From Promethearchaeota archaeon (lineage in GTDB: Archaea; Asgardarchaeota; Heimdallarchaeia; Hodarchaeales; Hodarchaeaceae): 64,000 nucleotides of DNA. The notes under the pieces are model-generated. The model saw only the letters and a program-made list of their open reading frames with translations, ran no database searches and had not been told where the DNA came from. The translations under genes and the position numbers were made by a program. The DNA is taken from contig JBHLMN010000002.1 in the NCBI GenBank assembly GCA_048938105.1, positions 64,001 through 128,000 on the forward strand, read 5' to 3'. This document shows, piece by piece, positions 23,197 through 61,682 of this stretch; positions within the stretch are counted from its first letter, which is position 1, and each line of letters begins with the position of its first letter.

Positions 23197-23231
23197 TTGA
23201 AAAGAAACCTCTTAAATTCATGATTCAATTG

Positions 23232-23771
23232 TTATTTCTGCTGCTGTTGGATAATAAAGATAGCAATTCGTTGAAATACTCTTTGAGTGTTTTCTCCTGT
23301 TACCGCACTTGTTTTAACATATTCTACAATACTTGGATATCTATTCCTGAATGCATTGATCTTTAACGGAGATGTTGAGATTCCTAAGTCTGCTTTTGTA
23401 GACACCAGAAAGTTAACACTTTTCTTTTTTTTCGTTTGATGTGTTCTTTGTTCGTAGACTCTTATCCAGTCATGAAGAGCGTCTAACGTTTCCTCTCGCG
23501 ATGGATCGAAAGCAAGAATCAAACCATCACAATCAGATGCATATTGGGGGAAGATTTTCCTGAAACTCGGCTCCCCTCCAAAATCAAATAGATGAATCAC
23601 TACTGTTGATCCACTGTCCAAAGTTAATGTTTTAATTGTGAAATCAAAGCCAACAGTGGAGTATAAACCCTTCAAAGGGAACTGATTGTGAATAAACCTA
23701 TGTACGAGGGTTGATTTGCCAACATGTTTCTCTCCTGCAATCACTATCTTAAGAGGTCTTTCCATCGTCAC
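23232..23771 (-). CDS. Rab-like small GTPase, divergent G motifs
   Basis: GEKHVGKS, STVGFDF, DFGGE, STKAD, TSAV. Confidence 0.85.
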   Translation of the reverse strand: MTMERPLKIVIAGEKHVGKSTLVHRFIHNQFPLKGLYSTVGFDFTIKTLTLDSGSTVVIHLFDFGGEPSFRKIFPQYASDCDGLILAFDPSREETLDALHDWIRVYEQRTHQTKKKKSVNFLVSTKADLGISTSPLKINAFRNRYPSIVEYVKTSAVTGENTQRVFQRIAIFIIQQQQK

Positions 23772-40665: not shown

Positions 40666-40695
40666 TACTCTCATAACGAATTAAAGGAATCTCAA

Positions 40696-42972: not shown

Positions 42973-43032
42973 TTTAATATGTTAAATCCTTGTTTTGTAA
43001 ATATTCTAACAGATAACTGTAAGAAGTTGTAT

Positions 43033-43338
43033 TCACTTTTCCTTACATCTACGAATGAGAATTACTGTTGTGCCTAAGAAAAGTAAAACTGTGAAAAAAT
43101 CTGGAAATGAACCTGATTCTGAAGCCGTTGTTGTGGTGGTGGTAGTTGATTCACTTTGAATAGAAGTGGTAGTAGAAGTAGTACTTGTAGGAATATTTGA
43201 TTTTTGAATCGTAAAAGTATCATCTGAAAAATCCTCTGTATAAACAGAAGGATTTTCTGAACATGTGGCAACAACATTAATAAGACAGTTAGATCCAGCG
43301 GGAATAGCTGTTATGTCCTAATTATAATTGATGATTCC
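43033..43338 (-). pseudogene. 3' remnant of a cell-surface protein (beta-rich domain end, Thr/Ser linker, C-terminal TM sorting segment)
   Basis: Minus strand reads GIINYN*DITAIPAGSNCLINVVATCSENPSVYTEDFSDDTFTIQKSNIPTSTTSTTTSIQSESTTTTTTTASESGSFPDFFTVLLFLGTTVILIRRCKEK*. No ATG start; in-frame TAG at 43318-43320. Confidence 0.7.
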
Positions 43339-43513
43339 TCCTGATCACCGACAAATTTGTATTAGATGTTAAGTAATATCGAAATTTATAATTCTGGTTA
43401 ATATATCATTGATATACTTCAAACAGTAATCAAATCCTCACTAATTTAGTTCAGTTCAATCACAATTAAGTTGTACATTAGTTTGATCTGGTATCACTGA
43501 TAGATGACAAAAA

Positions 43514-45559
43514 ATGAAAACAAATATAGCTTTTAATAACATAGAAATAAAAAAGCGGAAAGAAGAGGGTGTATTTTATACACCAGAATTTATAACAGAT
43601 TTTATGTGTAAAAATTCGATCATTCCTTACCTATCAAAGAAAGGCGCAGAGAATATTAATGAACTGATCTCCGAGTATTATGAAGATATTGAAAAACTCG
43701 AAAGTAAATTAAGAAATATCAAAATATTGGATCCTGCATGCGGATGTGGAGCTTTTCTAATCAAAGCTTTTGATGTGTTATTGGAAATTACTAAAGAAAT
43801 AAGATTAGTCAAAGATTTCAGAGGAATGCGTAAGAAAGATCAGAAAGCAGGAGATATGGATATATGGATAAATGAGGAAGAAGGGAAGCAGATAATCGAA
43901 AACAATCTCTATGGAGTAGATATTAATGAATCTTTAGTAAAAATTACAAAATTAGGCCTTCTTTCCAGGATTACAAAAAAAGATAGAAAATTAATGGATT
44001 TATCACAAAACATTATATGTGGTGATAGTTTATTAGAGGATGCCTCTTTAAAAAGTGATAAAGCTTTCAAATGGTCTTATTTTGAAGAAATATTAAATAA
44101 GGGAGGATTTGACATTATTATAGGAAATCCTCCGTATATTAACATTATTGAAGATTTAGAAAGTAGAAAATATTACAAAGAAAGATTTCCTGAAATATAT
44201 ACAGGTAAGAACGATATTTATTATTATTTTATCAGAAAAGCAATCGAATTAACTAAGAAGAATGGATATATTTCTTTGATTTCTCCAAGATATTTAATGG
44301 AGGCGTTTAATGCAAGGAAGTTGAGAGAGTATATCTTAAAAGAGACTGCTATTCAGAAAATTATTGATTTCTTAGATTTTAAGATATTTGCAGAAGCTAA
44401 TGTTGATACTGCGATTTATATCTTAAAGAGAACAAACACAAAAAAAGAGATTATGGTTCATAAATTAGTTAAACAAATGACACCTCCTCTAAAATTAGAA
44501 CCACCTTTTTTCAAGAATTTTTGTGTTGAACAAAATCAATTAACTGGAAAAAAATGGTATTTTATTGACCCTGAAATTCAATCTATCTTAGATAAAATTG
44601 ATACTAAGTCCACTGGAAGATTAAAAGACTATTCTATTCTAAGCAAAGGTGTTCAGACTGGTAAGGATTCTGTATTTGTATTAACAAAGGATGAAATAGA
44701 AAAATATTCAATTGAGAAAAATATACTTAGAAATTGGGTTAAGAATAGTCAAATCAGACGATTTGGTTACATTGATCCTCAATTATATATCATAATATCA
44801 AATAGAAAAACAATCAAAAAGCTTTCAAGCCATCCAAATTTGGAGAAGTACCTCTTAAAATATAAAGAAGAGTTAATGAACCGAACTAGGGTAAATAAGT
44901 GGTTTCATTGGAGAAAAGGGGATGAAAGATTTACAATTGACTGGAATAAGCCAAAAATTGTGACACCATATAAATCAGCAAATAACAAGTTTACAATTGA
45001 TGATAAAGGATGTTATTTTTCTCAAGACATTGTTCTAATTCTACCAACAGATGGTATTGATATCCGTTATTTACTATCGTATCTAAATTCAAGAATATGT
45101 GAATTCTATTTTAAGATAAAAGGTAAAAGATTGGGAGCTGTCTATGAATATTATCCAAGACAAATTGAAGATTTACCATTTATTAAGATCAAAACTAAAG
45201 AACAAAAAGCCTTTGTAAAGATTGTTGAAAGATTACTTGAATTAAATAAACTATTATCTGAAAATTATTTTAAAATTAAGAATAGGATAATGTCTGCTTT
45301 TAATATTGAAAATCTTAATAAAAATTTTTTAAAATTTAATGAAAAGAACATGATAAAATTCTTTAATGAGAAACTAGAAGAATCTAAGCTTTCGTCAATA
45401 CAAAAAAATGAGATTAAAGAATATATTTTGAATAGATTTAATGAAATTAACTCATTAGAAGAAGAAATTAGCCAAGTAGAGGAAGAACTTAATCATCTGA
45501 TTTATGAATTATATGATCTAAATCAAGAGGAAATTAGATTAATTGAGAAAACTTTCTAG
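43514..45559 (+). CDS. N6-adenine-type DNA methyltransferase with TaqI-C-like TRD
   Basis: RKEEGVFYTP, ILDPACGCGAFL, NNLYGVDIN, GGFDIIIGNPPY and LSYLNS. Visibly more AT-rich than its neighbours. Confidence 0.9.
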   Translation: MKTNIAFNNIEIKKRKEEGVFYTPEFITDFMCKNSIIPYLSKKGAENINELISEYYEDIEKLESKLRNIKILDPACGCGAFLIKAFDVLLEITKEIRLVKDFRGMRKKDQKAGDMDIWINEEEGKQIIENNLYGVDINESLVKITKLGLLSRITKKDRKLMDLSQNIICGDSLLEDASLKSDKAFKWSYFEEILNKGGFDIIIGNPPYINIIEDLESRKYYKERFPEIYTGKNDIYYYFIRKAIELTKKNGYISLISPRYLMEAFNARKLREYILKETAIQKIIDFLDFKIFAEANVDTAIYILKRTNTKKEIMVHKLVKQMTPPLKLEPPFFKNFCVEQNQLTGKKWYFIDPEIQSILDKIDTKSTGRLKDYSILSKGVQTGKDSVFVLTKDEIEKYSIEKNILRNWVKNSQIRRFGYIDPQLYIIISNRKTIKKLSSHPNLEKYLLKYKEELMNRTRVNKWFHWRKGDERFTIDWNKPKIVTPYKSANNKFTIDDKGCYFSQDIVLILPTDGIDIRYLLSYLNSRICEFYFKIKGKRLGAVYEYYPRQIEDLPFIKIKTKEQKAFVKIVERLLELNKLLSENYFKIKNRIMSAFNIENLNKNFLKFNEKNMIKFFNEKLEESKLSSIQKNEIKEYILNRFNEINSLEEEISQVEEELNHLIYELYDLNQEEIRLIEKTF

Positions 45560-45568
45560 ATTTTTCAG

Positions 45569-45967
45569 TTATTTCAAGGATTTTCTTGATTCTTCTGAGC
45601 TATTTTCACGAGATTCACTGATCTTTTTTTTAATTTTCTCTATTCCTTGAAACAACCACTTTTGAGGTTTACTGGGTTCTTCCTCTTGAACAATAATGTC
45701 TCCTTGCTCAATTAATGTTATGAATACTGTTGTAATGTTTTCTGAAACCCAGTTGTCGAGTTCTTTTCGTGAGACGGAAGGAAACGCAGAATTTGACTGT
45801 AATGCTTGCTCAAACACCATCTGATGGATTTTACGGTGATGGTGCTCCTTCAAATCGAACCAGAGGTTACGAATTAATTTCCGCTCTTTTGTTCTTAATG
45901 CTTCAATTTCTAGAAGGATTTCCCAAACTTTAGAAGATACAACAACAGGTTCATTTGATCTGTTCAT
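45569..45967 (-). CDS. Hypothetical protein
   Basis: 132 aa ORF with an ATG start preceded by GTAGGA. Confidence 0.7.
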   Translation of the reverse strand: MNRSNEPVVVSSKVWEILLEIEALRTKERKLIRNLWFDLKEHHHRKIHQMVFEQALQSNSAFPSVSRKELDNWVSENITTVFITLIEQGDIIVQEEEPSKPQKWLFQGIEKIKKKISESRENSSEESRKSLK

Positions 45968-46089
45968 AGTCCTACCACAGATTTTATTAAAAGAGTATCA
46001 AAAGATCTTTTTATTTTAGTGTATTTGATTGAGAGTTCTGATTTAGGAATGTATTATTATTCTATCCTGAAAAGAAAGGAGCTAAAGGT

Positions 46090-46356
46090 TCAATACATAT
46101 AATCCTTTTTACTCCTACGTAAAATAAATCTCTGAATTATTACAAGCCAAACAAAGCACACGATTCCCATTCCGATGAAAAGGAGAGAAATAAGGGTTTT
46201 GATCCATGCTGCATCTTCAAAACCTTGCGGAGAAGAGGGTAGTTGATCAGGGATAAAGAAAGGGAGAATAAGACCTGTAGCAATCATAACTAAAGCAATC
46301 GCCCCAGCAATAATTTCTGTCCTAAATCTTTCTAGTTGACGCGTAAAGAAGGACAT
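46090..46356 (-). CDS. Small two-TM membrane protein
   Basis: Two hydrophobic helices and a basic C-terminus. Confidence 0.7.
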   Translation of the reverse strand: MSFFTRQLERFRTEIIAGAIALVMIATGLILPFFIPDQLPSSPQGFEDAAWIKTLISLLFIGMGIVCFVWLVIIQRFILRRSKKDYMY

Positions 46357-46536
46357 TTCTTAAAATACCCCAAATTATTAGTATTTTCTTCCTCTTTGGT
46401 AATAGATGAAGCTTTAATAAAAGTTGTGAATTAATGAGAAATACTATAGTTTTATCATTCCTGAGCTTGAAGAATAAGTTAAGAAATCCCGTGTTATCCT
46501 TTTAGATAAATATTTTCCATAACCAGATAGGATATA

Positions 46537-48990
46537 TCACTTCATCATTTTTTTTAGGTATGCTATTTCAAGTAAAAGACTCAAATAGATTTCTTGCAGG
46601 AACACTTCATATTCATCCAGAGATTTTAGACCTAATGTATCTAAAACCAAAAGATCTAATCTTTTACGGGGTTTGAATTTTTTTCCAACAAATTTCTCAA
46701 ATTCTGGGAATTGAACCTTCAATAAATCATAATCCTGAATTCTTATTTCTGAAATTGGAATATTCATTGCCAATTGTTGCCATAAAGGAGGAAAAATTTC
46801 GTCCTTTATTTCATCAAATAACTGATAATAAGGGAATTTGTTTTCAGCGGTCCAAGTAAGAATATTAGGCAATTTCAATTCTTCAATGACATATTCATGT
46901 AGCTGCATCCAAGTGCCTCGTGTTTCGACCCTATTTAGGAAAATTTGGAGTATATTGATTATACTATTAAAATAAAGACAAAGAATTTTTGCTTCCTCTA
47001 TTGAAAGATCTAGGATACTCCACATGACTCCAGGGGGAGCTCTTTTTTCTCTACTGAAGAAAGAAAACAGAAAAGTCCCTGAAGCACTGAGGTCAAATCG
47101 ACGTGCAATCATAAGATTAGTAATTCGTTCTTCAACATAGAGTTTCCATTTTTTAAGCTTAGTAGAGGTTAATTTCTCGTTGATCATTCTTCCTTCAACA
47201 AGAAAATCTTTGAGTTGTGGGAATGAAGATATAATAACAAATTCTTTCTTGTTACTAGTATCGAGTCTGTTTTCTCCTGTCATTCGACGTAAATGGGGAA
47301 TAAGGCAATCTTTTGGGATTTTGATTCTAAGGTTTGAGTTTCGATCGATAGCATATATATGTGTGTCAGTTTCACCGTTAAAGATCCAATTGTCCATTGA
47401 ACGCAAATAATTAGGATTAAATTCATTTATAACCATAGTTTGGATTTTAAAACCTTTTGAAGTTTCGATTCCTCGCTTGAAACAAGCTTTTCTTGCTTTT
47501 AGAAACATATTAAATGAAATCATTGTTTTTTGGTCGGAAATTTGATTCCATGTTTTGAGAAGATCAGATTGATGTGTTGCAGCAATAGGTAGAAATAGGT
47601 TATTAGGAGAAAGCTCTTCTCTGGGAACAATCCTAATTTTCCAAGAATCTGAAATTCCTCCGTTCCATTCTTTCCCCAAAAAATCAGTACTTTCTTGATC
47701 TTTGACTATAATATAGATGATCCTCGTTGTACGCTGGTTTTTCGTGGCAATTAACAATACTTCGCGAAAAGCTGTATTTTCTGAAAAATTCGGTTTATCT
47801 TGCTGACAGATGATATATTGAATATCGTACTGTTCCATTAGCCATTTTCTTATTTTATATGTGGTATTGATTCTTAGAAAACTCGCAGGAATGATTGCAG
47901 CTATTTTTCCTCCAGATCTGAGAAACTTATCAGCTAGTAGAAGAAAATAACAATAATAACTTGTTCTCTTGTCAATTAGAAATGAATATTTATAAAAAAC
48001 TTGTCTTAATTCATTTTTATATGATTTCCTGATTTTATTCAAATTTTCATGTCTAACAAAAGGAGGATTCATGATCACGAGGTCAACAAAGTCTAGGTGT
48101 AATTGTTTTGTAAATTTTATAGAGAAAATATTCTCTTTTTTTCCTGAAATCCGTCGAATCTTTGATTTGGGATCGACAAAAGCAGAATCACAGATGGCCA
48201 ATCTATTCTGACGAATTCCCCATATAGGAGCTTGAAGGGCGAGATGAGTGGCCGAAAGATGGACTGCAAAAGGCATTATATCAAGTCCAGTGATATCTGA
48301 AGACAAAAAGCGCTTATGATCCTCGATAGTGAATTTTCCTTTCTTTAATATTAATAATTCTTTTTTACGCTTATAGGAAGAGACCAATAAGGCCCCACTA
48401 CCACATGCAGGGTCAAGAATTGTTACAGAGGGATTATCAATTGCATAATAACTTAAAATATAAGCAGTCTTCATTCCAGAATAATAGGCTCCAATTTTTT
48501 TCCTAAGAGAAGGGGGAATTAAACTATTAAAAATCAGTACTAAGATTTCATATTGAAGTAATTCTGGTTTTAATCCCATAATAATTTTAATTATATCTTT
48601 CAAAAATTTGAAAGAGTAAGCATCCAGATTTTTTAATAAATTCTGTTTAAAAATCGGATCAGAAGTGACTTCCAAAGCTTTCTCAAAATAGTTCGCTAAT
48701 ACTTCTGAATTCTTAAGAGAATTCGTATTAATTTTAGGGAGATCTGCTCGTTTTTCACTCAGAACGAGATAGAAAGTAATTTGAGCGATCAATAAATACG
48801 CAGCACTTGTTTTTAAGGCATTATTTCTCTCCTTCTCACTCTCAATTGGGGTTCCAAGTTCACTACTAAACAAACTATAACTTATAAGCTGCGAGGGGAG
48901 TTTTAAGGATAAACTATTGATTATATTTCTGAAGATTTGAGGCAAATCATCCGGATTACTCTTCAAAGTACCCTTAAGTGAAATCAACAT
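46537..48990 (-). CDS. N6-adenine-type DNA methyltransferase (type IIG-like MTase+TRD)
   Basis: RKKIGAYY, ILDPACGSGALL, GLDIMPFA and VIMNPPF. Confidence 0.88.
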   Translation of the reverse strand: MLISLKGTLKSNPDDLPQIFRNIINSLSLKLPSQLISYSLFSSELGTPIESEKERNNALKTSAAYLLIAQITFYLVLSEKRADLPKINTNSLKNSEVLANYFEKALEVTSDPIFKQNLLKNLDAYSFKFLKDIIKIIMGLKPELLQYEILVLIFNSLIPPSLRKKIGAYYSGMKTAYILSYYAIDNPSVTILDPACGSGALLVSSYKRKKELLILKKGKFTIEDHKRFLSSDITGLDIMPFAVHLSATHLALQAPIWGIRQNRLAICDSAFVDPKSKIRRISGKKENIFSIKFTKQLHLDFVDLVIMNPPFVRHENLNKIRKSYKNELRQVFYKYSFLIDKRTSYYCYFLLLADKFLRSGGKIAAIIPASFLRINTTYKIRKWLMEQYDIQYIICQQDKPNFSENTAFREVLLIATKNQRTTRIIYIIVKDQESTDFLGKEWNGGISDSWKIRIVPREELSPNNLFLPIAATHQSDLLKTWNQISDQKTMISFNMFLKARKACFKRGIETSKGFKIQTMVINEFNPNYLRSMDNWIFNGETDTHIYAIDRNSNLRIKIPKDCLIPHLRRMTGENRLDTSNKKEFVIISSFPQLKDFLVEGRMINEKLTSTKLKKWKLYVEERITNLMIARRFDLSASGTFLFSFFSREKRAPPGVMWSILDLSIEEAKILCLYFNSIINILQIFLNRVETRGTWMQLHEYVIEELKLPNILTWTAENKFPYYQLFDEIKDEIFPPLWQQLAMNIPISEIRIQDYDLLKVQFPEFEKFVGKKFKPRKRLDLLVLDTLGLKSLDEYEVFLQEIYLSLLLEIAYLKKMMK

Positions 48991-49390: not shown

Positions 49391-52300
49391 ATGTCAAATC
49401 AAGGTCGAACGAAGACTTTTTATCAAGGCTACCGATCTTGGTTTCAACCATTTCGTTATAATGAACGAGAGAAGATACCTATTTTTGTATTGGATTATGA
49501 AACTCATAGTCAATGGGAAGATACACATGATTACACATCTCAATACGAAGATAGAGAGTATAGTAAAACGAAATTGATTAATGGGATCCAAATCTACTTT
49601 TTAGATGAAGACTATAAAAAGAGGAAAGCATTTTTAAGACATGAACCCTACTATTACCTATTACTTGAGGATGGATTATCACAGAAAGAAATCAATAAAG
49701 TAATGGCTCAGATTAGACAAGTTGAAGACAAACAAGTAATTAACGTAGAGAAAGGCGATTATTACGATGCAGCTGATCTTACATTTTTAAAAAGAAAGAC
49801 ATTTCTAAAAGTAACTGCAGATCGACCCAGGTCCGTGCCGAATCTACGTGTAAAAAGTGAAGAAATAACTGGAGTACAGGAATGGCGAGAAGCGGATGTA
49901 TTGTTTCATCATCGATGTGCAATAGATCATGATGTTCGAGTTGGAGCTTGGTACCTAGCTGAAATAAACCGAGGAGAAATCATTAATCTTTCTCCATTGC
50001 ATAATAAAACACCTCCTCAACTAAAAATTCTAGCATTTGACATTGAAACAGATTTTGAACAAACACGTGATCCTAATCCTAATAAAGACGAAATTTCAAT
50101 GATTTCACTTTTTACAGGTACTGAAAACAAATTACTTATTAACGCTGGAGTTGTCGAGACAAAGGATGTCAAAAATTTTGATATACTTCTTCGTCAAAAG
50201 GATGATGCTACCTATCCTAAACCATGGGTCGATTGGAAATACTCCAAAACACCAAAGGAAGTTATAGATGTAATTGAGAAATTTCCAATAGAAGTAATCA
50301 TAGTAAAGACTGAAAAAGAACTACTACAATTATTCTATCAATTTATCGATGATTATAGACCAGATGTTATCACAGATTTTTTTGGGGGCCGTTTTGATAT
50401 TCCTTTTCTTGCCATTCGTTCAGAAAAGCATAAAATTTCTTTTGAAAAAGAAACTGGATTTGAAATTAAATTTAGGCTCACAAGAAATCTGAGTCGAAAA
50501 GATTTACACCAGTATTATTCCTCAGCAAACATTGATCATGTTGCAGGAGCAGGCATCATTCATTTGGATGCTTATCTATTTAATGAGAAATATAGTTATC
50601 TCCCCAAAAAAGATCTTGGTTTAAAACCAAGTGTGGAGAAAAAACTGAAAATAATTCCTATCGGGAGAGAAGCTCTGTTAAACATTAAATCAGATCCAGT
50701 TTCAGCTGTTGCTTATTCTGGTAGCGATGGTTACATAACGTGGAAATATGTTCGAGAAATAGTCCTTGATTTTTTCATTTCAATGGGACAAATATTTCCA
50801 GTTCCAGCATCAGAATTATTAACACGGCGAGCAGGATCATTAGATGACCTTTTAATTGATGCAGAAGATTATAAACATCAGATAATAGGGAGAAGGAGAG
50901 TTGGGCAGAATGATATTGTTTCTTTTTCTCCAGGTATTGTCATTGAATCGTTAGCATACACAGGGGGTTTAGTTGAAGCTAAAAGACCAGGAATATGGCG
51001 AAGTGATCTCAATTATAGTTTTAAAGTTAATAAAATCTCGCTAAGAAATCTTAAGGAAGTTATTAGACGAGTAATTGAAAAAGAAAGCAATATTCTAGCT
51101 AAGAAAGTGATTAAAGAAGAATTTGAAAAACATCTTTTAGCTGAATTGGGGGAAGTTAAAGTGGAATACGCTGAAGATCCAGTACAGTTCTTAAAAGAGG
51201 TGGAGGTAGAACTCTTAAGAAATGGAATCCCACATCAGGAACTTAAACGACAACTAGATTCTATCAGGAATATCTTGGAGGAAATATCTTCATATCAACC
51301 CATAAATGTTGAAGAGGTTACTACGGATATTCTAGCACAAATAGAAAAATTATCTTCTTTAGATGGGATAACCCAGCTTAAGGGAGTCCACGTTGACGTT
51401 ACTTCCATGTATCCTTCCCAAATTCGCCAATATAAGTTACAACCTTCAGGAATTGTATCTCTTACTAAGTGTAGAATGTGTGAATTATATGAACCTGATG
51501 ATAGATGTTTCGTTGAAGGTGATTGGGTAATTAAACTTTCAGCGAATCGCCCATGTCGTTTTAAAGATAAAGGAGCAAAGAAATGTGCATCTTCAGTTTG
51601 TAACGCACAGAATGAAGCGAAATGTAAGAAGTATGATCCAATTCAAAATGGTATCACTCGTTCCCGTGAAATATTTACTTTTGATGGAAAAAAGACAGAA
51701 GCTTATATTCTTATAAATGGCTCGAAACTTGAAAAAGTTCCAGTAAGTCGTACGTATCTCGGAGCGAGTATCTTAAAAGATCCATTTGTTACCCTTCAAC
51801 AGTGGCTTCGTAACTCAGTAGAAGCAACCCAGCTCACAACCAAGCTAGCTGAGAATCATTTTGATATTTTTGAGGATACACAAGAAAATATTCAGCTCCC
51901 GAGTAATTCATTTCTGAGTCTAGATGTCAGAACTAAGAAAATGACTATATTATTATCTGTTCATTCACGTGTCTGTCAAAAGGCTTATAATTTTGTTGCT
52001 AGGATTATGGATGATTTCTTTAACACCCGAGTTCGGCATAAAATCGAAGCTAAACGGCTATCACAAATTATTTCTCAAAAATATAAAAATCAGTTCGTCC
52101 CCCCAAAATTATTGCGTCAACAAAAATTCCACGAAAGTACCCAGATTGGTATGAAAGTTCCTTTAAACAGTATCTATGGGCTTCTTGGCATGAAAGGAGG
52201 TGTTAGGAATGCGAGTATGCCATGCGCTGGGATTACAACGAAATTATCAGCTGATCTGATATTTTGGGCTGCGAATCAATTAGATCAAATAGGCTTAGTA

Positions 52301-55075
52301 ACAGAGTTGGATAGTTTAGACTACAATGAACGATTGATTCTAAAAGATCCCAATGATCTCATCAGAGTTCTTTCAATTGGAGAGTTAACGGATCACTGTA
52401 TTTCAGTAAATCAAATACATTCTTCTGATAAAGTGAGGAATGTCGATTACATTGTTGTACCTAAAGGATGGCAAGCTTTATCTGTTACAGATAGGGGAAT
52501 AACCGAATGGAAACCAATCTTAAAATGTGTACGCCAAAAAACCTCAAGAAAATTAACCAAAATAAAAACCCCATTTGGTTCTGTAAAAACAACTGAATCT
52601 CATAGTGTTTTTCATAATTTACAGGATAGAATTGAACCCATTGAAGTAAAAAAGTTAAAATCTGAATATATCACTCATATAAGTAAAATTCCACCAATAG
52701 AAAAAAAGGTCTTATTTATCGATTTTACCAAATTCAAACCTCCAGAACTCGATTTATATGTATTTGTACCTGTGAAAGATAATGTTAAAAGCAATTACCC
52801 AATTTCGAATATTAGGTACGATAGAAATTCGAAGAATAAAAGGACAGATTATTACAAAATTCAATTTAAAGATTTTAACGGAAATATTACGCCTGATACT
52901 ATTGTTGGAACAGAGAAAGGCTACAAATATCCTGCTCGGATTAAATTAGATGAAAATATTGCAGAATTGTGTGGATGGTTTGTAGCAGAAGGTAGTTCAG
53001 GTGTTTATAAAGATAAAATTAGTGTTGGTATCTCTCAGAAGGATGAAAAACGATTAAACCACATTAAAAAAATAATTGAAGATGTCGCTATTCACTTATT
53101 GACGCCTTTCAAGATTAAACCTTCTCTTTCTGACTCTAGATCCAATACAAAAAGACTTGCAATGGATAATATATTCTTCTACCATCTTTTCGAAATCCTT
53201 GGGTGTGGTCACGATGCTTTCGAAAAAAGAATACCTAAATTAATCTTATCTTCCTCAAATAAATTAAAGAAAGCTTTCTTGCGAGGATACTTTGGTGGAG
53301 ATGGGGACTTTCAAGGAAAAAGAAAAACATTTTGGACATCGAGTGATGGTTTAAGAGATGATTTATTTGTACTCGGCAAACAACTAGGATATATCATAAG
53401 TATTCAAGAGACAATATCAAGTTCTTCTGGAAATACAAGTCACATAATAAATTATATGGATAAAGACAATTGGAAAGCGGGTAGTAGATCACATTACGAT
53501 CATCTGGAATTAAATGATACAATTGGAATACAAAATAGATCTTTGAGTCAAGAGAACAAAACATCAAATCATGTCTACGATTTGTCTGTTTTAGATAATA
53601 ATAATTTTGTAGCCGCCAATGGTGGGATTGTATGCCATAATACTGATGGTATTTGGCTGTGGGTTCCTAAATTATTTCCATTAGAATTTTCTGTAACAAT
53701 TACCAACTCATATAGAGAAGATAAATTTAAGGTCTTCAAAGTCAGTCTTATAGATAAAATTCTCAATGAAAAAGTAGCAACATTTTCAAAAAACGATAAT
53801 TACTGGATAAATAATGGAGAAACAATTATACGGTCAAGTAAAAGCCTCATTCAATTTGAGCAAGATGGGCCTTATGATTTCCAATTTGTGATGGGGAAGA
53901 AGAAATATATTGTTTACAATTATAATCAGAAAAACCAAACATGGATAGAAAAGGAATTAACAGGGTTAGAATCAAAACGAGCGGACTTCTCAAAACTGCA
54001 AAAATATTTTCAAGAGAGAATCATTAATACTTTTTTAGATCAGTACAACCCAGATGATCCCATTACAATTGATCAGCTATATGAGAATGCGAATAGAGAA
54101 GCAGATCTAATTCGTACTGAGATGATTAATGGCCGGATGGATTCTAGTTATTTTGTCAAACCAAAGGCAATCAACAAACCGTTGAGAGCTTATAAATCAA
54201 AATTACCTCAAGTTTCTGCAGCATACATTTTGAAAGATCTTGGATATTCCGTGGATCCAGGTACCAGGATTCAGATGCTTAATATCAAAGGAAATCATGT
54301 TATACCTAGACAACTATTGGATTTTGATTTTAAAACAATAAAAAGGGTTCTAGTGAAACACGCTATCGCTAGTCTTAGTTTTATGTTAGGTGAACTCAGT
54401 ACGAAAGATGATTTACAAAAATTAATTGATGTTAATCAATATATTGAAGATATTTTTGGACCTGGACGAATTTACGATCGGATGATTCGATATCCAAAGG
54501 AATTTCAGCAATTAACACCACAAACTCAAAGGAAATTAGACTTAAATGAACTGAGAACAGTACAGCGGCAAAAAGTGAGAGATTACGATCTAAAGTTACC
54601 AAAAAAGAGTTTCAAGAAAAAACGAAGAACTATGAGAGTTAAAATAAAAAATGAAAAACAAGCTATTAATATCAAGACGTTTAAGCAAAAAAAGTTAGGA
54701 ACTCAGAGCTTAGATAATCTTTTTCAAAATGACAAGCAAGTAAATCAGCCTGAATCTGTTCCTATAGTTAAAAGAGTAAGTGATAAGAAAATTACTAGCT
54801 CTAAAAGTGATATTGAAGCTAAAGTATACCATCCGCCCTCTCAAGCCGTATTAATAACGACACCTAAGGGAACAGAAGGAAAAGCTCAGCTGATTTCTTC
54901 AGAAGAGATTCAAGAATTAGAAACAAACGAGATTTTCACAAATGGCAATAATGAATTAGAATTAGATACCCCAAAAGAAGAGCTTATGGTATGTTCGGAA
55001 TGTGGAGCTTTAGTAAATCCGTTGGAAATCACGAGTGAGGGGTGTACCTTTTGTGGAGGACAACGTCTTAGATAA
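49391..55075 (+). CDS. polB: Family B DNA polymerase, Pol epsilon-like, intein-containing
   Basis: ExoI LAFDIET; region II HVDVTSMYPS; region III KVPLNSIYG; region I ELD|TDGIW; blocks typical of Pol2/POLE; C-terminal CxxC..CxxC. Confidence 0.92.
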   Translation: MSNQGRTKTFYQGYRSWFQPFRYNEREKIPIFVLDYETHSQWEDTHDYTSQYEDREYSKTKLINGIQIYFLDEDYKKRKAFLRHEPYYYLLLEDGLSQKEINKVMAQIRQVEDKQVINVEKGDYYDAADLTFLKRKTFLKVTADRPRSVPNLRVKSEEITGVQEWREADVLFHHRCAIDHDVRVGAWYLAEINRGEIINLSPLHNKTPPQLKILAFDIETDFEQTRDPNPNKDEISMISLFTGTENKLLINAGVVETKDVKNFDILLRQKDDATYPKPWVDWKYSKTPKEVIDVIEKFPIEVIIVKTEKELLQLFYQFIDDYRPDVITDFFGGRFDIPFLAIRSEKHKISFEKETGFEIKFRLTRNLSRKDLHQYYSSANIDHVAGAGIIHLDAYLFNEKYSYLPKKDLGLKPSVEKKLKIIPIGREALLNIKSDPVSAVAYSGSDGYITWKYVREIVLDFFISMGQIFPVPASELLTRRAGSLDDLLIDAEDYKHQIIGRRRVGQNDIVSFSPGIVIESLAYTGGLVEAKRPGIWRSDLNYSFKVNKISLRNLKEVIRRVIEKESNILAKKVIKEEFEKHLLAELGEVKVEYAEDPVQFLKEVEVELLRNGIPHQELKRQLDSIRNILEEISSYQPINVEEVTTDILAQIEKLSSLDGITQLKGVHVDVTSMYPSQIRQYKLQPSGIVSLTKCRMCELYEPDDRCFVEGDWVIKLSANRPCRFKDKGAKKCASSVCNAQNEAKCKKYDPIQNGITRSREIFTFDGKKTEAYILINGSKLEKVPVSRTYLGASILKDPFVTLQQWLRNSVEATQLTTKLAENHFDIFEDTQENIQLPSNSFLSLDVRTKKMTILLSVHSRVCQKAYNFVARIMDDFFNTRVRHKIEAKRLSQIISQKYKNQFVPPKLLRQQKFHESTQIGMKVPLNSIYGLLGMKGGVRNASMPCAGITTKLSADLIFWAANQLDQIGLVTELDSLDYNERLILKDPNDLIRVLSIGELTDHCISVNQIHSSDKVRNVDYIVVPKGWQALSVTDRGITEWKPILKCVRQKTSRKLTKIKTPFGSVKTTESHSVFHNLQDRIEPIEVKKLKSEYITHISKIPPIEKKVLFIDFTKFKPPELDLYVFVPVKDNVKSNYPISNIRYDRNSKNKRTDYYKIQFKDFNGNITPDTIVGTEKGYKYPARIKLDENIAELCGWFVAEGSSGVYKDKISVGISQKDEKRLNHIKKIIEDVAIHLLTPFKIKPSLSDSRSNTKRLAMDNIFFYHLFEILGCGHDAFEKRIPKLILSSSNKLKKAFLRGYFGGDGDFQGKRKTFWTSSDGLRDDLFVLGKQLGYIISIQETISSSSGNTSHIINYMDKDNWKAGSRSHYDHLELNDTIGIQNRSLSQENKTSNHVYDLSVLDNNNFVAANGGIVCHNTDGIWLWVPKLFPLEFSVTITNSYREDKFKVFKVSLIDKILNEKVATFSKNDNYWINNGETIIRSSKSLIQFEQDGPYDFQFVMGKKKYIVYNYNQKNQTWIEKELTGLESKRADFSKLQKYFQERIINTFLDQYNPDDPITIDQLYENANREADLIRTEMINGRMDSSYFVKPKAINKPLRAYKSKLPQVSAAYILKDLGYSVDPGTRIQMLNIKGNHVIPRQLLDFDFKTIKRVLVKHAIASLSFMLGELSTKDDLQKLIDVNQYIEDIFGPGRIYDRMIRYPKEFQQLTPQTQRKLDLNELRTVQRQKVRDYDLKLPKKSFKKKRRTMRVKIKNEKQAINIKTFKQKKLGTQSLDNLFQNDKQVNQPESVPIVKRVSDKKITSSKSDIEAKVYHPPSQAVLITTPKGTEGKAQLISSEEIQELETNEIFTNGNNELELDTPKEELMVCSECGALVNPLEITSEGCTFCGGQRLR
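52313..53641 (+). mobile_element. Intein (443 aa) with LAGLIDADG homing endonuclease, at the pol-c site
   Basis: Begins SLDYNE after ELD; block B KTTESHSVF; LCGWFVAEGS and FLRGYFGGDG; ends VYDLSV..NNNF..VCHN, followed by Thr (TDG). Confidence 0.93.
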
Positions 55076-55254
55076 TAATTCACTTGACAATTAACCTTTT
55101 TCTTCAATTTATTTCAGCTACCGCAAAAATAGGGTTTTTAAATATAATAGGTAAAATTCATACACCCGAGTGTAAAAATAACAGGATAGAAATTCTTACA
55201 AGAAAACTACCATTGCTTTTTAAAGACCATATTTATGCAGAGGTTGATATTTAT

Positions 55255-57507
55255 TTGACAGAACAGTATTCATTACAGAAATATAAGTCACTAGAAAGTT
55301 TTGCACTAGATCAAACAGAACAATTTTTCAAACCGAGGACTTTTCTTGATTTAGTATTCTTACTTTTACTAATTTTCTGGTGGATATCAGCTTTTTTTTT
55401 CTCACAAACTGGAGTATTTCGTGCCACTATATTCACTGGTCTAATAGTTCTATTTGTATTTACACCATTATACATTTATCTTAAGGGAGATGATAAATCA
55501 GCAGCTTCTCCTATGAATCGTGCGGGGAAGATACTAATTTTTTATATTATCATTCTAATTTCTACCCCAAGTAGTACAATATCAAATATATGGGGTTCAA
55601 CTATTCCAATTTCTTATGGTGAGCTTGAACGAGCTCTCGTGTGTATTCTCATTCCTTTTACAATATTATTGAATAATTTTTCTCTTAAAATGCTTAAAAT
55701 GGGTTATTTGTTTTATATTCAAAGGATTCTTCAAGGTTTTTGGTTAGCAAGTTTGATTTTTTACATATTTAAGGGGATTCAGCTATACCATCCTATTGAT
55801 ATATTTCCAATAGATTTCGATTTTCTACTATTTATTACATTCTTTATGTTTTTAGGCGGTAGTTTATTTCCAGTAGCTCCCAAACAATTAAGCTTAAGTA
55901 CAACTGATCTTTTTAATCAGTATCAAGCTTTAAAATCACCAACGGAAAGAATTCGTGACGCTTTACTAGCTGGAGCTTTCTGTTTGTTAATCGTTCTTCT
56001 TTTAAAATGGGTTGATTCAGCTTATATTGAACTGTTTCAATATACTGCATTTTTAAGCTTATTAATCGGATTCATCTTGATTTTCACACCAAAAAAACAA
56101 GATAGTCGATTTGGATCTCTCATGAGTGCTATTTCTAGTCAAGGTCAGGTTATTGATCCCTCTAGTAGTCTCGGGAATCGAGTCCAGAATTTTGCTAAAA
56201 CAATTCAAGAAACCGAGTTCAGGAAGTCGGAACGAGTTTACACAATTCCAACTGATCAGATGAAGCTTGTGAGTAAGGGAAAAACATCAGTGAGAGCTAG
56301 TAAAGGAGCTATCGCTGTTCCAACAGTTACCGAAAAAGGAACTGCATTAGTTCTAATGGGTAAATCTGAAATGGAAACACAGACTGAAGATCAAGAAGCT
56401 TCATCTAAAAAAGAAATTAAGGGAACTACCACAATTTGGCTAAAACCGGAAGAATGGAACAAAATAAAACTACAGTTAAATCCTAAAGAAATGAGCGAGC
56501 TGACCGAATTCGATCTGAAAACAGCTGGTATTAATACTACAACAGAAATCTTTGAAAAAACTAGAAAGGCACTGAATGATTTGAAATCATGGCGCGGACC
56601 ACAAGGGATTTTTTCATCAGTTTTAGATTCAACACCATCTAAGTATTCAATAACAGAAACAGAAGATTATTCTTTAGTGAGGTTACCTGGGGTCTATGTT
56701 TTCGAATCTAACATGTTAGAATTGGTCAATGTTTTGGGAGGTCTTGTCAAAGTTATCGAAGTCAAGGGAGTCGGCCAATACGTCCAAGTTCTTGGAGGAT
56801 TTGTAACAGTTCTAGAAACAACTGATTATTCTTTTGTGCAAACTCCTTTTGTTTCCGTTATTGAAACACCAGTTGGGGAAAAAGTCCGAGTTTTTGGAAT
56901 AGATATTCAGGAGGGGGATCCAATTGATTTAGAAGAAATGAGAACGAAAATAATTCAAGATAAACAGAACTTCGATCAGTTATTTACCAAACGAGTAGAA
57001 TCTCTTTTTAAAGAAGATCCTCAGTTATTATTAACTGATTCAAAAGGAGAAAAGACGGGGTTCATTGTAGGGGAAGATGAACTATTGAGTGATGTCCCAA
57101 CGAGAGGTAAAGGTCTAAAAGCTATGAAAGGATTAAAGGGACTAAAGAGTCTCAAAGGAATAGAAGGATATGATTCAAAACATAGACATAGGCATAAGCA
57201 TTCTCCTCGGGCTCCTTCTCCTCCTCTTCCTCCTCCTCCTCCTCGAAAAAGGAAGAAAATTACTGTACGTTTTCCATCAGACCTCAATAGCGAGGAAATA
57301 CCAGTTGATCATCCACAACTTCAAGAAATAGAAGAAGCATTAACTCGAATTGAAGAATCTATTAATGCTACTGATGAAAAATTTCTGAATAACGAGATTT
57401 CCGAAAAAAAGCATACAGAGATAATTAATCGGTTAAACGTAAGAAAGGAGAAATTACAGAGAAAGAAGGAGGAACTTAACGATAATTTGAAACCAAAGCT
57501 GGTTTGA
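55255..57507 (+). CDS. Polytopic membrane protein with a large soluble C-terminal region (basic/His patch, polyproline tract, coiled coil)
   Basis: About 8 TM segments, then a beta-rich region, KGLKAMKGLKGLKSLKG, KHRHRHKH, APSPPLPPPPPRKRKK. Likely TTG start at 55255 after GAGG; the ORF is open from 55084. Confidence 0.8.
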   Translation: MTEQYSLQKYKSLESFALDQTEQFFKPRTFLDLVFLLLLIFWWISAFFFSQTGVFRATIFTGLIVLFVFTPLYIYLKGDDKSAASPMNRAGKILIFYIIILISTPSSTISNIWGSTIPISYGELERALVCILIPFTILLNNFSLKMLKMGYLFYIQRILQGFWLASLIFYIFKGIQLYHPIDIFPIDFDFLLFITFFMFLGGSLFPVAPKQLSLSTTDLFNQYQALKSPTERIRDALLAGAFCLLIVLLLKWVDSAYIELFQYTAFLSLLIGFILIFTPKKQDSRFGSLMSAISSQGQVIDPSSSLGNRVQNFAKTIQETEFRKSERVYTIPTDQMKLVSKGKTSVRASKGAIAVPTVTEKGTALVLMGKSEMETQTEDQEASSKKEIKGTTTIWLKPEEWNKIKLQLNPKEMSELTEFDLKTAGINTTTEIFEKTRKALNDLKSWRGPQGIFSSVLDSTPSKYSITETEDYSLVRLPGVYVFESNMLELVNVLGGLVKVIEVKGVGQYVQVLGGFVTVLETTDYSFVQTPFVSVIETPVGEKVRVFGIDIQEGDPIDLEEMRTKIIQDKQNFDQLFTKRVESLFKEDPQLLLTDSKGEKTGFIVGEDELLSDVPTRGKGLKAMKGLKGLKSLKGIEGYDSKHRHRHKHSPRAPSPPLPPPPPRKRKKITVRFPSDLNSEEIPVDHPQLQEIEEALTRIEESINATDEKFLNNEISEKKHTEIINRLNVRKEKLQRKKEELNDNLKPKLV

Positions 57508-57558: not shown

Positions 57559-59514
57559 TTATTCTTTGATGTCAGGAGATTTAAGGGATTGCAGTGTCAT
57601 ATTTAAGCTCTCAATCATAGAATCTAATTTGAATTTGGACTCAGCAAGTAATAATAAATCCTTCTTTAACGATAAGCGTGAGACACGAGTGGTAACCACT
57701 TTATTAACTTCATTGTGATTACTTTTCGGATTATTTTCGACCCATTCTATCAATAGCGAAACAGAATGAGCGAATAACGACATCGCATGATTTTCGTCCT
57801 TTTCCTTCAGAATAATAATCGCAGCATTATGATAAGCAGTACTTGCTCTCCGTAAACTAATCAATGCATTCATTAATGCCTTTTTCTTTTGATCTAACAC
57901 AATTTCTGTGGAAGGAAGTGTTGACATTCCTTTGGTTCCGGCGAGAAATAGCTCTGCAGCTTTTTCAAAATCTTCCATTTTAAAAAGAGTATTTGCATAC
58001 TGAATTTGAATAGGAATAAGATCAGATATAGGAGTACTTGATTTAGATAGACACTGAAGAGCGTAATCAAATGAGTCAAGAGCGATAGAACATGTGTTCA
58101 TTTTTTCCTCTATTTTCCCCTTTTCAAATGAAATCAGCCCTAAAAGTCTGTTTTCTCGAATAGTGATCTCTTCTTTTTTTAGTAAGGATAATGCACGGGA
58201 AAGTAGCTCATAAGACCTTTCCCTATCTCTGATCATTCGAGCTCCGTCATATAATGACTTAGCTGCGGAAATATGATCTCCAGCTTCAATAAAAAGTTTT
58301 GTTGCCTTTTCTAAAAGATTTACACCTTTTTCTTTATTTCCTAGTGAGAAGTAAGCGCTCACTGCTAAGATTAAAGATGTCGCTGCTTTTTTGGAGTTTT
58401 TCTCTGTTTGTTGCAATAATCGAGAGGCTTCCTCTCTTTTCTTGGCTGATCTTCCGATTAATCCAATAGTATAAGTAGGATTTTCTCCCCTCTCTTTTTC
58501 AGCTTGAAACATTAACCTACTCGCAAAAGTCGATAGATAATCAGCTGCTGTCTGTTTATCCGATACTAAGTTGACCGCTTTATCAAAGCATACATTAGCT
58601 TCTTCATATCGAGACTGTTCATGGAGAACAATACCCATATCATAATTCAGCGATGCGTTTAACGAAGGATCTTTTATCCATAGGGTCGCAGCTTGAATGA
58701 GTTCAATGGCTTTATCATATTCCTGTAAATGATAGGCGCATTTACCTGCAAAATATGAGGCTTCGCCAGCCTTTTCAAATAATCGAATACGAGAGTAACA
58801 ATTCGTAGCTTTCTCGAAAGCTTCCCCTGCTTCTCTATAGCTGTTTCCAGTTAAAAAAATTCTACCAACCAAAGCAAAAGCATGTCCTGCTCCTTTATCA
58901 TCAACGTTTTCTAGTCGGTTTGCAACTCGTAAAGCAGTCCATAATTGATTTCTGTCCTTGAGATTTTCCCATGCTTCTTTTGCTGTTTCAAGATCTTGTA
59001 AAGCTCGAGGAATGGCATAATCAGAATTTACTTCGAAGGAAATTGCGTCAAACTTCTCTTCTTTTTCTAAAGTATGAAGTGATTCAGCAATTTTATCCCA
59101 AATTTTTTGGGCTGAAAAATCAGCAATCTCTTGTTTTAGGATATCTAGATATTCAAAAATGTTGTTATTCAGATGAGAACTTAAGATTTCAGCTGTAGCT
59201 TGATCTGTCAAAAATGCTAAAAAGAAAGGGCGTTCTTTTCCCCGTAAACTAGTATCTAGCCATGAATCAAAAGCTACCCTAGCTATGACACCCTTGCCTA
59301 AGCTTAATAAAGGAATAGAGAATTCTGTTCTTTGTGAATGACCATGTTGCCCAAATACTGTCACAGATGCAAGATAAATTTGCAAAGCGACAGATTCCGG
59401 GTCATTTAAAGCGGCATGCGGGAAAAGAGAAATTATAGATGGACCTGATATGTCATCCCACCGAACAGCCAGGATAGTGAGGTCCATTCTTGGTTGTTCT
59501 ATAAAATCTTGCAT
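57559..59514 (-). CDS. Longin/uDENN-like domain + TPR/alpha-SNAP-like solenoid protein
   Basis: N-terminal LAVRWDDISGP...RGKERPFFLAFL, then repeated A..F.KA...Y TPR helices. Confidence 0.72.
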   Translation of the reverse strand: MQDFIEQPRMDLTILAVRWDDISGPSIISLFPHAALNDPESVALQIYLASVTVFGQHGHSQRTEFSIPLLSLGKGVIARVAFDSWLDTSLRGKERPFFLAFLTDQATAEILSSHLNNNIFEYLDILKQEIADFSAQKIWDKIAESLHTLEKEEKFDAISFEVNSDYAIPRALQDLETAKEAWENLKDRNQLWTALRVANRLENVDDKGAGHAFALVGRIFLTGNSYREAGEAFEKATNCYSRIRLFEKAGEASYFAGKCAYHLQEYDKAIELIQAATLWIKDPSLNASLNYDMGIVLHEQSRYEEANVCFDKAVNLVSDKQTAADYLSTFASRLMFQAEKERGENPTYTIGLIGRSAKKREEASRLLQQTEKNSKKAATSLILAVSAYFSLGNKEKGVNLLEKATKLFIEAGDHISAAKSLYDGARMIRDRERSYELLSRALSLLKKEEITIRENRLLGLISFEKGKIEEKMNTCSIALDSFDYALQCLSKSSTPISDLIPIQIQYANTLFKMEDFEKAAELFLAGTKGMSTLPSTEIVLDQKKKALMNALISLRRASTAYHNAAIIILKEKDENHAMSLFAHSVSLLIEWVENNPKSNHNEVNKVVTTRVSRLSLKKDLLLLAESKFKLDSMIESLNMTLQSLKSPDIKE

Positions 59515-59523
59515 ATTAGTCGT

Positions 59524-61290
59524 TTAAGTCAGCTCCTTTAATTTTTCTTTTAAACGACGCAAGTCGACCATTTTTTTCTCTGATGTTGTTGTCTTCTCAA
59601 CTAGTTGAAGTTTTTCTTCTTTGGGAAATTCGATCGTAGGTGCCAAAGGGGTGAATGACTCGGATCCATTTATCCTTAAAACTAGGATAGTTCTAACTTC
59701 GTCAGAGCATAATTTCCAAGTTAGAATTTGATGAGTTTTTTCGTTCTTTATGAAGGGGGTCAAATGGAGTGGATCTATCAACGTTAGATTGAAATCTGAA
59801 GGAATTCGATCAGTTATAGTAATGTCGTTTGTTGTAAAATTCTCAACAGAATAGAACCATAGGTACTCACATTGGTTTGTATCTACAACTGGTTGTGATA
59901 TTTTTTCAACTTTAACAGAACCAATATTACACTCATATTCATCAATGTAATGTCTGGTTAGAGGTTTCTCACGAAATTCGTAAAACACGGAAAAATTGTC
60001 GCCTGGTAGTAATGTACTAAAAATCCATCTGAATAAGGTGCTATCGTGGGTTGGAATTGTCACAGGTTTGATTTTTTTATTTGAATTTGAATTTTTTACT
60101 ATTAGTTCACGGGGAATGATATCCTCCACCAAGATTTCGTGAAAAACTTTTCCTGATGTATTTACAAAATCCAAGTTAGCCTCTAAATCTTGTTGAACGG
60201 ACTGGTAAATAGTAACTACAGAAACTTTACTTTCTTTTCTCAAAATAATAGAGCGTTCAACTCGCTTTCTCAAGATATATTCAACAGAAATCTTTTCACC
60301 AGGCTCTATCCTATCTTTTTTCCAAGTGAAAATCAATCCATCATTTGTACGCTTTTTTTCATCTAATTCAAAGTCCGTTATAATATTAACTACTTGAAAG
60401 CTGAATGGAATAGTATTAATTATTTCGATGTCAATCAACTCATCCTCAAATTCATTTGTGATTTCTGTTGTTGCTGTGTAATCTAAATCAAGATTATCAC
60501 TGCTTTTTAAAAATTCAGATGGAATTAATTTTTCTTTAATCTCAGAATCAGGAGGATATCTGTTTGTAAATGTGTCAACAACATCATTTAAGCTTTCACT
60601 AGGTTCTACTGGACTTAAGGTAAACTGAGGTTCAATAACTTGTGACTCACCAGATGTATTCTTTACAAATGCATTTGTTTGGATTTCCTGATTAATTTTC
60701 TCTCTTGTTGCTTGTGAAACGGCCGCAAGGACGGCGTAGGAACCCAAAGTTGATGGTTGTTCCTTCTCGAGTTGAGGGATCATGAATTCTTGCTTTTTTG
60801 GTTGAGTGTCATCATCAATCGAGAAAAAATCATTGTTAAGGGGGATGATCTCCTCTTCCTCTTCAATTGGTAGAATATCAACATCTGGAAGGGCTTCAAC
60901 TACCTTTGTTGACTTTTCCTCTTCCTCAATTTTTGCTTTCTTCTGTCTTTCTAATGTATCTAAAGCAATTCTATATTGATGCATTGATGAGGAAAATCCA
61001 TATTCCTTACCTTTTTCAAGCAAGATTTCAGCTGTATCTATATCATCAATCATTAAATGCCTCATTATTGCTTTTCCATAACAAGATGCCGCTCTTTCTT
61101 TATTATCTAAATCAAGAAAAAAGTCTCCAGCTAAAGTGAGATATTGACCAGCTTTTTTCCGATCTCCCAGTTTGTCATAGCATTTTGCTGCTTCTTCAAA
61201 AATTGTTGCTGAAACATCGAGAGAATGTTTAGAAGCTTCTGTAGCCTCACGTACTAGCTCTTCGCAGTCTGATTGTTGCATTAGAGTCAC
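59524..61290 (-). CDS. TPR/SNAP-like N-terminus + acidic linker + three Ig-like beta-sandwich repeats
   Basis: EEAAKCY..LGD..KA and AASCYGKA helices; three (D/N)xIP...W...(PG)...Y units; no signal peptide. Confidence 0.7.
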   Translation of the reverse strand: MTLMQQSDCEELVREATEASKHSLDVSATIFEEAAKCYDKLGDRKKAGQYLTLAGDFFLDLDNKERAASCYGKAIMRHLMIDDIDTAEILLEKGKEYGFSSSMHQYRIALDTLERQKKAKIEEEEKSTKVVEALPDVDILPIEEEEEIIPLNNDFFSIDDDTQPKKQEFMIPQLEKEQPSTLGSYAVLAAVSQATREKINQEIQTNAFVKNTSGESQVIEPQFTLSPVEPSESLNDVVDTFTNRYPPDSEIKEKLIPSEFLKSSDNLDLDYTATTEITNEFEDELIDIEIINTIPFSFQVVNIITDFELDEKKRTNDGLIFTWKKDRIEPGEKISVEYILRKRVERSIILRKESKVSVVTIYQSVQQDLEANLDFVNTSGKVFHEILVEDIIPRELIVKNSNSNKKIKPVTIPTHDSTLFRWIFSTLLPGDNFSVFYEFREKPLTRHYIDEYECNIGSVKVEKISQPVVDTNQCEYLWFYSVENFTTNDITITDRIPSDFNLTLIDPLHLTPFIKNEKTHQILTWKLCSDEVRTILVLRINGSESFTPLAPTIEFPKEEKLQLVEKTTTSEKKMVDLRRLKEKLKELT

Positions 61291-61298
61291 TCCATGAG

Positions 61299-61682
61299 TT
61301 ATTTTACAACTTTATATTTAGAAGTAATGGTTAACACTTCTGACACGCGAGGATTGTAATCTTCTAGAGGATTTCGGTCATCATACTTAATAGATTGGAA
61401 TGTCCTTGAAAAAATCACCCAAGAAACACGTTTATTTTGACTTTTAGCGAAACGAGACAGTCTTTCAAACGCGTCTTCACCTTTGATACCAAAGGATTGT
61501 TCGCATAGCACACGTATCTCATCAAGAATATTTGGAGTGCGGTTTCTAGAGAAAAGACTCAATTTTTCTAGAAGATTCGCTTCTTTAGGATTAATTTTCT
61601 TCTTTTTCAGCAATTCAATTATAAAAGACGGATCTTGTAAGGATTGACTAGCTTCAGCGAAGGTTAAATTAATAAAAGGCAC
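61299..61682 (-). CDS. Hypothetical protein
   Basis: 127 aa; GTG start after GAGGA; first gene of a tightly spaced three-gene run. Confidence 0.7.
   Translation of the reverse strand: MPFINLTFAEASQSLQDPSFIIELLKKKKINPKEANLLEKLSLFSRNRTPNILDEIRVLCEQSFGIKGEDAFERLSRFAKSQNKRVSWVIFSRTFQSIKYDDRNPLEDYNPRVSEVLTITSKYKVVK

Follow-up and report, generated by a model that had tools for sequence, protein, structure and literature searches.

What is encoded by three adjacent, co-oriented genes of a Hodarchaeales archaeon, in which a longin domain, helical repeats and immunoglobulin-like (Ig-like) β-sandwiches are combined? The genes, here named A, B and C, are located on the reverse strand near the end of a 64,000-nucleotide stretch of the Promethearchaeota contig JBHLMN010000002.1 (the whole of which is called the window below), and are read in the order C-B-A. 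A preliminary description of this DNA had proposed a proto-trafficking architecture of the AP/COPI and TRAPP kind, forming a cytosolic complex that regulates many Rab-like GTPases or membrane remodelling, possibly through a longin/DENN-type guanine nucleotide exchange factor (GEF). Our analysis points to a different function: the operon is a candidate GTPase-activating protein (GAP) module with a two-protein scaffold, by which a small GTPase would be switched off, a reading whose chances we regard as evenly balanced.

The operon itself is genuine and conserved. Its open reading frames (ORFs), their lengths and the annotated gaps (8 bp between C and B, 9 bp between B and A) are as first described. 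Alternative starts are possible: for B, an ATG at 61281 is preceded by a GGAGTGA motif and the database form has 585 amino acids (aa), and the database form of A begins at residue 10 (642 aa), so that the true gaps are perhaps 17 and 36 bp. A chance arrangement can be discounted because homologues are numerous (70 of B, 60 of A and 78 of C, the named ones mostly from Hodarchaeales or Heimdallarchaeota) and the order C-B-A is kept in the loci read within the genus, where B and C each occur in 18 of 19 other genomes. No hydrophobic segment was found in A, B or C by hydropathy (best 19-residue values 1.16, 1.31 and 0.43; a signal-peptide predictor was not applied), in line with the earlier statement that B has no transmembrane segment. 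The data support A, B and C as cytosolic proteins of one operon, and the three genes are presumably co-transcribed. A sigma-70 promoter scan was set aside as unsuited to an archaeon.

The longin domain of protein A and associated GTPases

Modelling with AlphaFold2 (AF2) predicts that protein A starts with a true longin fold, with the element order β-β-α-β-β-β-α-α and a predicted local distance difference test score (pLDDT) of 89. The closest structure is a Lokiarchaeota longin (8yqg; Z 14.0, root-mean-square deviation (rmsd) 3.0, 131 residues aligned), followed by a chain of the folliculin complex (6nzd_H; Z 10.6, rmsd 2.9, 129 aligned), Lst4 (Z 10.3), GATOR1/SEA chains (9.9 and 9.7) and C9orf72 (9.1). 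The longins of VAMP7, DENND1A, TRAPP and AP-sigma reached Z values of at most 8.6, below the 9.1-10.6 of the GAP family, and a Foldseek search was concordant (GATOR1 chains, E 2e-4). The longin assignment of the N-terminus was confirmed by fold; the DENN reading of it was not supported, and no DENN core follows.

Single-sequence and close-family searches of PDB sequences gave no match for this domain, and only with broadened profiles were C9orf72 and SMCR8 reached, weakly. In the resulting alignments, W19-D20 and G24-P25 of the A family are in register with W33-D34 and G38-P39 of C9orf72 (weak, E 0.23), G24-P25 also with G68-P69 of SMCR8, and Arg91 with R147 of SMCR8 (weak, E 0.15); the residue numbering aligned to both proteins agrees with the catalytic residues of the literature. 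The GP motif sits before strand 2, with G in 65 and P in 60 of 66 family rows, and Arg91 is present in 63 of these rows and in every one of the 44 close homologues. Five family members matched Pfam Folliculin (best E 5.8e-7). PMC12290439 gives the GP motif as a mark of GAP longins that the longins of adaptins, TRAPP and DENND proteins lack, and records Asgard longins with a GP motif and an arginine finger, so the key domain class of A is already published for Asgard archaea. Since WD, GP and Arg stand in register with C9orf72/SMCR8, the A longin is marked as belonging to the GAP-type class and not to the DENN GEFs. This genome carries at least ten GP/RG longins, some of them at the end of very long frames (C52:42076-68649, C52:37454-42079 and C28:49987-57777, with 8857, 1541 and 2596 codons).

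Behind the longin, residues 165-651 match only TPR/SNAP-type helical repeats in Pfam, and neither cDENN nor dDENN was detected. A full-length SNAP domain (about 280 aa) was not found, as A covers at best positions 41-169 of the 282 in the profile and is scored higher by TPR models. Adaptin_N is absent from both A and B (Pfam, E up to 1), the solenoid of A being of TPR type.

The longin family of A is also linked to GTPases. In Asgard family f14, which belongs to another Asgard class, probably the Lokiarchaeia, the same longin domain occurs in fusions with Arf-like GTPase, PAS and receiver domains; comparable fusions are described for NPRL2-like Asgard longins by Liu et al. (bioRxiv 10.1101/2020.10.19.343400). 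The GTPases fused to or neighbouring this longin family mostly have GLxxAGK P-loops, unlike Rab-like GTPases, and are mostly Arf-related or Rag-like. In this genome, the GTPase genes most similar to the GTPase of these fusions are C52:460194-460859, C38:100858-101421, C38:101431-101982, C39:3788-4738, C27:267306-268310 and C52:289684-290631. Longin-GTPase-longin fusions, in which an Arf-like GTPase is flanked on each side by a GP/RG longin, were seen at L055:3214-5748 (here also with PAS domains), L056, L057, L062, L065 and L066. In the window, four Ras/Rab-like small GTPase genes are found at 11042-11581, 22636-23771 and 26844-27473, 30-46 kb from the operon.

Protein B and its predicted complex with protein C

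The helical start of B is short (about 115 aa, TPR-like), and its SNAP match spans profile positions 49-113 below the cut-off, so that neither a full-length alpha-SNAP domain nor an adaptin trunk of about 500-600 aa is present. TPR/SNAP repeats had been described for both proteins; they score above the Pfam cut-off in A, and weakly in B. The acidic linker of about 150 aa described before has a D+E content of 21%, hardly above that of the flanks (19% and 17%), and of its length residues 116-178 could be retained as a linker. Residues 179-228 are conserved (column identity 55-75%) and are probably folded; based on homologues lacking the insertion and on repeat comparison, they would form a helix and the first hairpin of repeat 1.

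The three β-sandwich repeats described for B were recovered in an AF2 model of its C-terminal 326 residues, which was searched as one three-repeat model. The best structural matches reached Z 7.8-8.6 over about 100 residues, and carbohydrate-binding (chitin/cellulose) modules, integrin, macroglobulin and one mu-homology lobe were tied. Mu-homology domains were frequent among the matches of the third sandwich (Z 6.3-8.0), covering a single lobe, i.e. about 90-115 of 240-290 residues; for SGIP1, Z was 8.0 and rmsd 3.0 with 103 of 284 residues aligned. A full nested mu-homology domain at the C-terminus was considered and is not favoured, as a single lobe superposes and is tied with unrelated sandwiches. 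No Foldseek match was obtained at E 0.001: delta-COP was spanned over about 240 columns with an rmsd of 23 Å (E 0.07), and one TRAPPII chain gave E 0.057, probability 0.08 and TM 0.10. Adaptin ears and TRAPPC8-11 domains were absent among the 50 matches listed from two VIA searches, which does not exclude them. Single-sequence and close-family searches of PDB sequences gave no match for the sandwiches.

B itself has no Pfam match in the repeats, and the DUF11 assignment is made at the family level, where DUF11 was matched by 22 of 93 members (best E 5.3e-8) and Adap_comp_sub by three (best E 6.4e-6). Six of ten Atlas neighbour rows of B are clusters with at least 95% DUF11 carriers. The sandwiches of B are DUF11-like, and B is neither a mu subunit nor an adaptin; a distant kinship with mu-homology lobes may exist. 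The preliminary description had named three findings that would speak against its reading, an N-terminus of another fold than longin, Ig repeats of generic DUF11 type and the lack of a predicted or observed complex: the modelled longin is in its favour on the first, while on the second the repeats are DUF11-like at the family level; for the third, see the B-C model below.

The B family is wide: it is matched in 97 of 300 Asgard genomes, in some cases only weakly and by a single repeat, and its N-termini vary. In families f14 and f27, the relatives have a gelsolin-like domain at the start (villin E 1.8e-7; Asgard gelsolins), located at L051:3476-3850, L070:1465-1845 and L042:838-1218, and two sandwiches followed by a helical hairpin at the end. 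In other Heimdallarchaeia (L033:6143-8318), a 525-aa relative has a different N-terminal domain, with a separate 201-aa gene for a TPR-like protein just upstream. Protein C as a split-off N-terminal domain of such 525-aa relatives was rejected (hhalign probability 0.4%).

Protein C had no significant match in Pfam, PDB sequences or Atlas, and homologues were found in 26 of 300 Asgard genomes. In the modelled complex, the last strand of C is placed between strands 444-455 and 560-578 of B. The model score was 0.77, compared to 0.00 for the best of three controls; the score mark is attained by 58 of 80 solved pairs and by 2 of 110 mismatched ones, figures that are only rough for a model built with its own alignments. 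At least 68% of contacts are common to the runs, the partner pLDDT is at least 77, and sequence searches revealed no known complex resembling B-C. On this model, binding between B and C is quite probable. The multimer suggested earlier for all three proteins was in this way obtained for two of them.

Gene order, proposed mechanism and alternative explanations

In the proposed GAP module, A would be the catalytic part, whose longin would present Arg91 to a GTPase and speed up hydrolysis; the GTPase would most likely be Arf-related or Rag-like. Because a single chain bears both WD (found in the C9orf72 half) and the arginine finger (found in the SMCR8 half), A would probably act as a homodimer formed via the longin. 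Its TPR solenoid would bind partners. B and C would form a stable pair, the last strand of C completing the third sandwich of B, and this scaffold would position A or recruit its targets. That A is an active GAP is slightly favoured, and binding of A to the B-C pair is given a similarly modest preference. Of the earlier proposal of a cytosolic GTPase-regulating complex, the link to small GTPases is likely to stand, together with the predicted B-C complex, while Rab-like partners are not favoured.

A B-type gene follows C directly in five Asgard families (f1, f2, f12, f23 and f28), one f12 neighbour being cut by the contig end so that only a TPR-like start is visible; in f2, the C-B and B-A junctions are each present on short contigs. 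The order B-then-A is seen in Hodarchaeales and in two f14 loci (L051 and L070), in which longin-TPR genes come after B-type ones. At L051:967-11918 (G281:C211), five co-oriented genes encode a protein with a weak Adap_comp_sub match (E 0.007), two B-type proteins and two longin-TPR proteins, of which one keeps the loop arginine and the other does not. At the other f14 loci, an A-type gene was not seen in the stretches covered.

Several observations weigh against a GAP module. No GTPase gene was found inside or adjoining the operon, the nearest small GTPase found in the window being about 30 kb away. SMCR8 and C9orf72 are matched only weakly by A (E 0.15-0.27), which shows register, not proof, and one of the three B-C runs scored just 0.44. 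In the stretches read, no A-type gene was seen at the C-B loci of f12, f23 and f28, which together with the f14 loci indicates that members of the B family do not always have A as a partner; several f14 longin-TPR relatives also have no arginine, so a module lacking a catalytic A is possible. The A longin family further occurs fused to receiver and PAS domains, which makes signalling without catalysis possible. From these same data (C-B pairs of three families that have no A nearby, the often missing arginine, and the receiver and PAS fusions, also described by Liu et al.) it could be argued that A has no catalytic role and binds GTPases or dimerises as an adaptor in signalling, with B-C as an independent scaffold in a shared operon. 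However, Arg91 is invariant, along with GP and WD, in the close homologues of A, and B-then-A recurs across two classes, and we consider this adaptor function unlikely.

An assembly of longin, solenoid and Ig appendages resembling AP/COPI or TRAPP, for cargo sorting or membrane shaping, would agree with the frequent mu-homology matches of the third sandwich, the three Adap_comp_sub carriers among the B family and the weak Adap_comp_sub gene at one f14 locus. The mu matches are one-lobed and tied with other sandwiches, though, DUF11 leads both the family matches and the Atlas neighbours of B, Adaptin_N is absent, the helices of B are short, and the longin of A is not of adaptin or TRAPP type, which makes such a coat or adaptor very unlikely; the proto-trafficking architecture proposed before is not supported. 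The GEF reading of the preliminary description fares worse. DENND1 uDENN (Z 8.4) and Mon1-Ccz1 (Z about 7) are among the fold matches of A, and about 49 ORFs of the genome have small-GTPase motifs, many Rab-like; but with GAP-specific motifs in A, no DENN core behind its longin and associated GTPases that are mostly not Rab-like, a Rab GEF is highly improbable. There is equally little to expect from a mainly cytoskeleton-linked B family through which the operon would couple a GTPase switch to actin: gelsolin-like starts are found in f14 and f27, yet B of this operon has none, and the relatives that do have only two sandwiches and a different C-terminus.

In a further extension of the GAP module, the heterodimeric longin GAPs of eukaryotes would have had A as their forerunner, a homodimer encoded by one gene. 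A would dock on the B-C pair, whose sandwiches, taken as similar to mu-homology lobes, would place it at membranes or actin. Such a scenario is rather unlikely; if true, the two L051 duplicates, with and without arginine, would be a catalytic/non-catalytic split that arose independently in Asgards. The findings give no archaeal vesicle coat, and nothing here links the module to membranes. GP longins and shuffled TPR/Ig proteins are expected in Asgards. The value of the operon is that of a compact, testable system: a conserved, soluble three-protein candidate of Hodarchaeales that offers a single residue (R91) to change, a short list of candidate GTPases and a modelled interface between partners. 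PMC12290439 raises the question whether the GP-motif longins of Asgards do act as GAPs and, if so, on which GTPases. If A has GAP activity, GTPase control of the folliculin/GATOR1/C9orf72 type would predate eukaryotes.

The coordinates of all features are listed in the table. Among the flanking genes, those for a membrane protein, NUDIX, HMG-CoA reductase and PolB are syntenic within the genus and not in f2, and their linkage was treated as plain synteny. The family B DNA polymerase (window 49391-55075) contains a LAGLIDADG intein at approximately residues 1036-1417 (Pfam). The convergent 807-aa membrane protein (55084-57507), syntenic only within the genus, contains a polyproline stretch and ends in a coiled coil that weakly resembles CdvA (E 0.004). 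Several Eco57I/N6-methylase restriction-modification genes are clustered in a low-GC stretch at 38056-48990.

Table. Positions of the operon genes and of the features of their products (window coordinates)
Feature	Position	Strand	Residues	Description and basis
Gene C	61299..61682	-	127 aa	Matches no known family; predicted partner of B
C, C-terminal segment	61302..61361	-	108-127	Strand at about 116-123 predicted to insert in third sandwich of B (complex model)
Gene B	59524..61290	-	588 aa	Short TPR, linker, three DUF11-like β-sandwiches; probable start ATG 61281
B, short TPR/SNAP-like helical region	60946..61290	-	1-115	Pfam SNAP E 0.001, below cut-off; conserved
B, acidic linker	60757..60945	-	116-178	Two short conserved motifs, LPxIDxLP and FxIPQL; alignment A1
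B, conserved helix and β-hairpin	60607..60756	-	179-228	Probably start of sandwich 1; conservation, homology, inference
B, variable insertion	60499..60606	-	229-264	Column identity about 0.3
B, three tandem β-sandwich repeats	59578..60498	-	265-571	AF2, pLDDT 89
B, third sandwich	59557..59961	-		Strands 444-455 and 560-578 flank C strand in model
Gene A	57559..59514	-	651 aa	GP-motif longin and TPR solenoid
A, longin domain	59050..59487	-	10-155	FLCN/NPRL2/SMCR8/C9orf72 type; AF2 pLDDT 89 and structure matches
A, W19-D20 and G24-P25 motifs	59440..59460	-	19-25	Profile alignment and conservation
A, Arg91, candidate arginine finger	59242..59244	-	91	β4-β5 loop; conservation and profile register
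A, TPR/SNAP-like α-solenoid	57562..59022	-	165-651	Pfam TPR_2, TPR_12, ANAPC3 and SNAP above cut-off

Comparison with known systems

No earlier description of the operon, the B-C pairing or the B-C interface was found in the accessible parts of the literature; the adjacency of C and B in five Asgard families and the predicted strand insertion are new. With the Asgard proteins combining Vps28-C, adaptin-appendage, longin and TPR domains (Makarova et al., PMC10936438), the operon has in common that TPR, Ig-like and longin domains are combined in cytosolic proteins, but Vps28-C and the steadiness box were not seen in A, B or C, and no ESCRT genes adjoin. Like DUF11 (PF01345)/CARDB-like Ig domains, B has the corresponding sequence pattern, Pfam matches among its relatives and the nearest Atlas clusters, whereas it differs from them in having no hydrophobic segment, in being joined to a TPR region and in apparently being completed by a strand of a second protein, as modelled.

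Compared with the mu and delta subunits of AP/COPI, the third sandwich of B superposes on one mu-homology lobe. In B, however, three lobes are arranged in tandem instead of two being nested, and the longin (A) and the sandwiches (B) are on separate chains. Unfused AP-type domains have already been reported in Asgards (Eme et al., PMC10307638). Other Asgard proteins (595 aa, family f11) match Adap_comp_sub better (E 1e-4).

A further comparison is with longin GAPs. With the Asgard GP longins of FLCN/SMCR8 type (PMC12290439) and the NPRL2-like longins (Liu et al.), A shares the fold, the GP motif, the arginine at the finger position and the family's fusions to GTPase, receiver and PAS domains. 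The accessible text of these sources describes no operon of fixed order in which a longin-TPR protein is accompanied by a DUF11-like scaffold and by a small partner that donates a strand. The fold (Z 9-11) and the WD, GP and Arg register are shared with C9orf72-SMCR8 (an Arf GAP), FLCN-FNIP2 and NPRL2-NPRL3 (GATOR1). In contrast to these eukaryotic longin GAPs, A carries WD and Arg on a single chain and has a TPR solenoid in place of the DENN-like C-terminal part.

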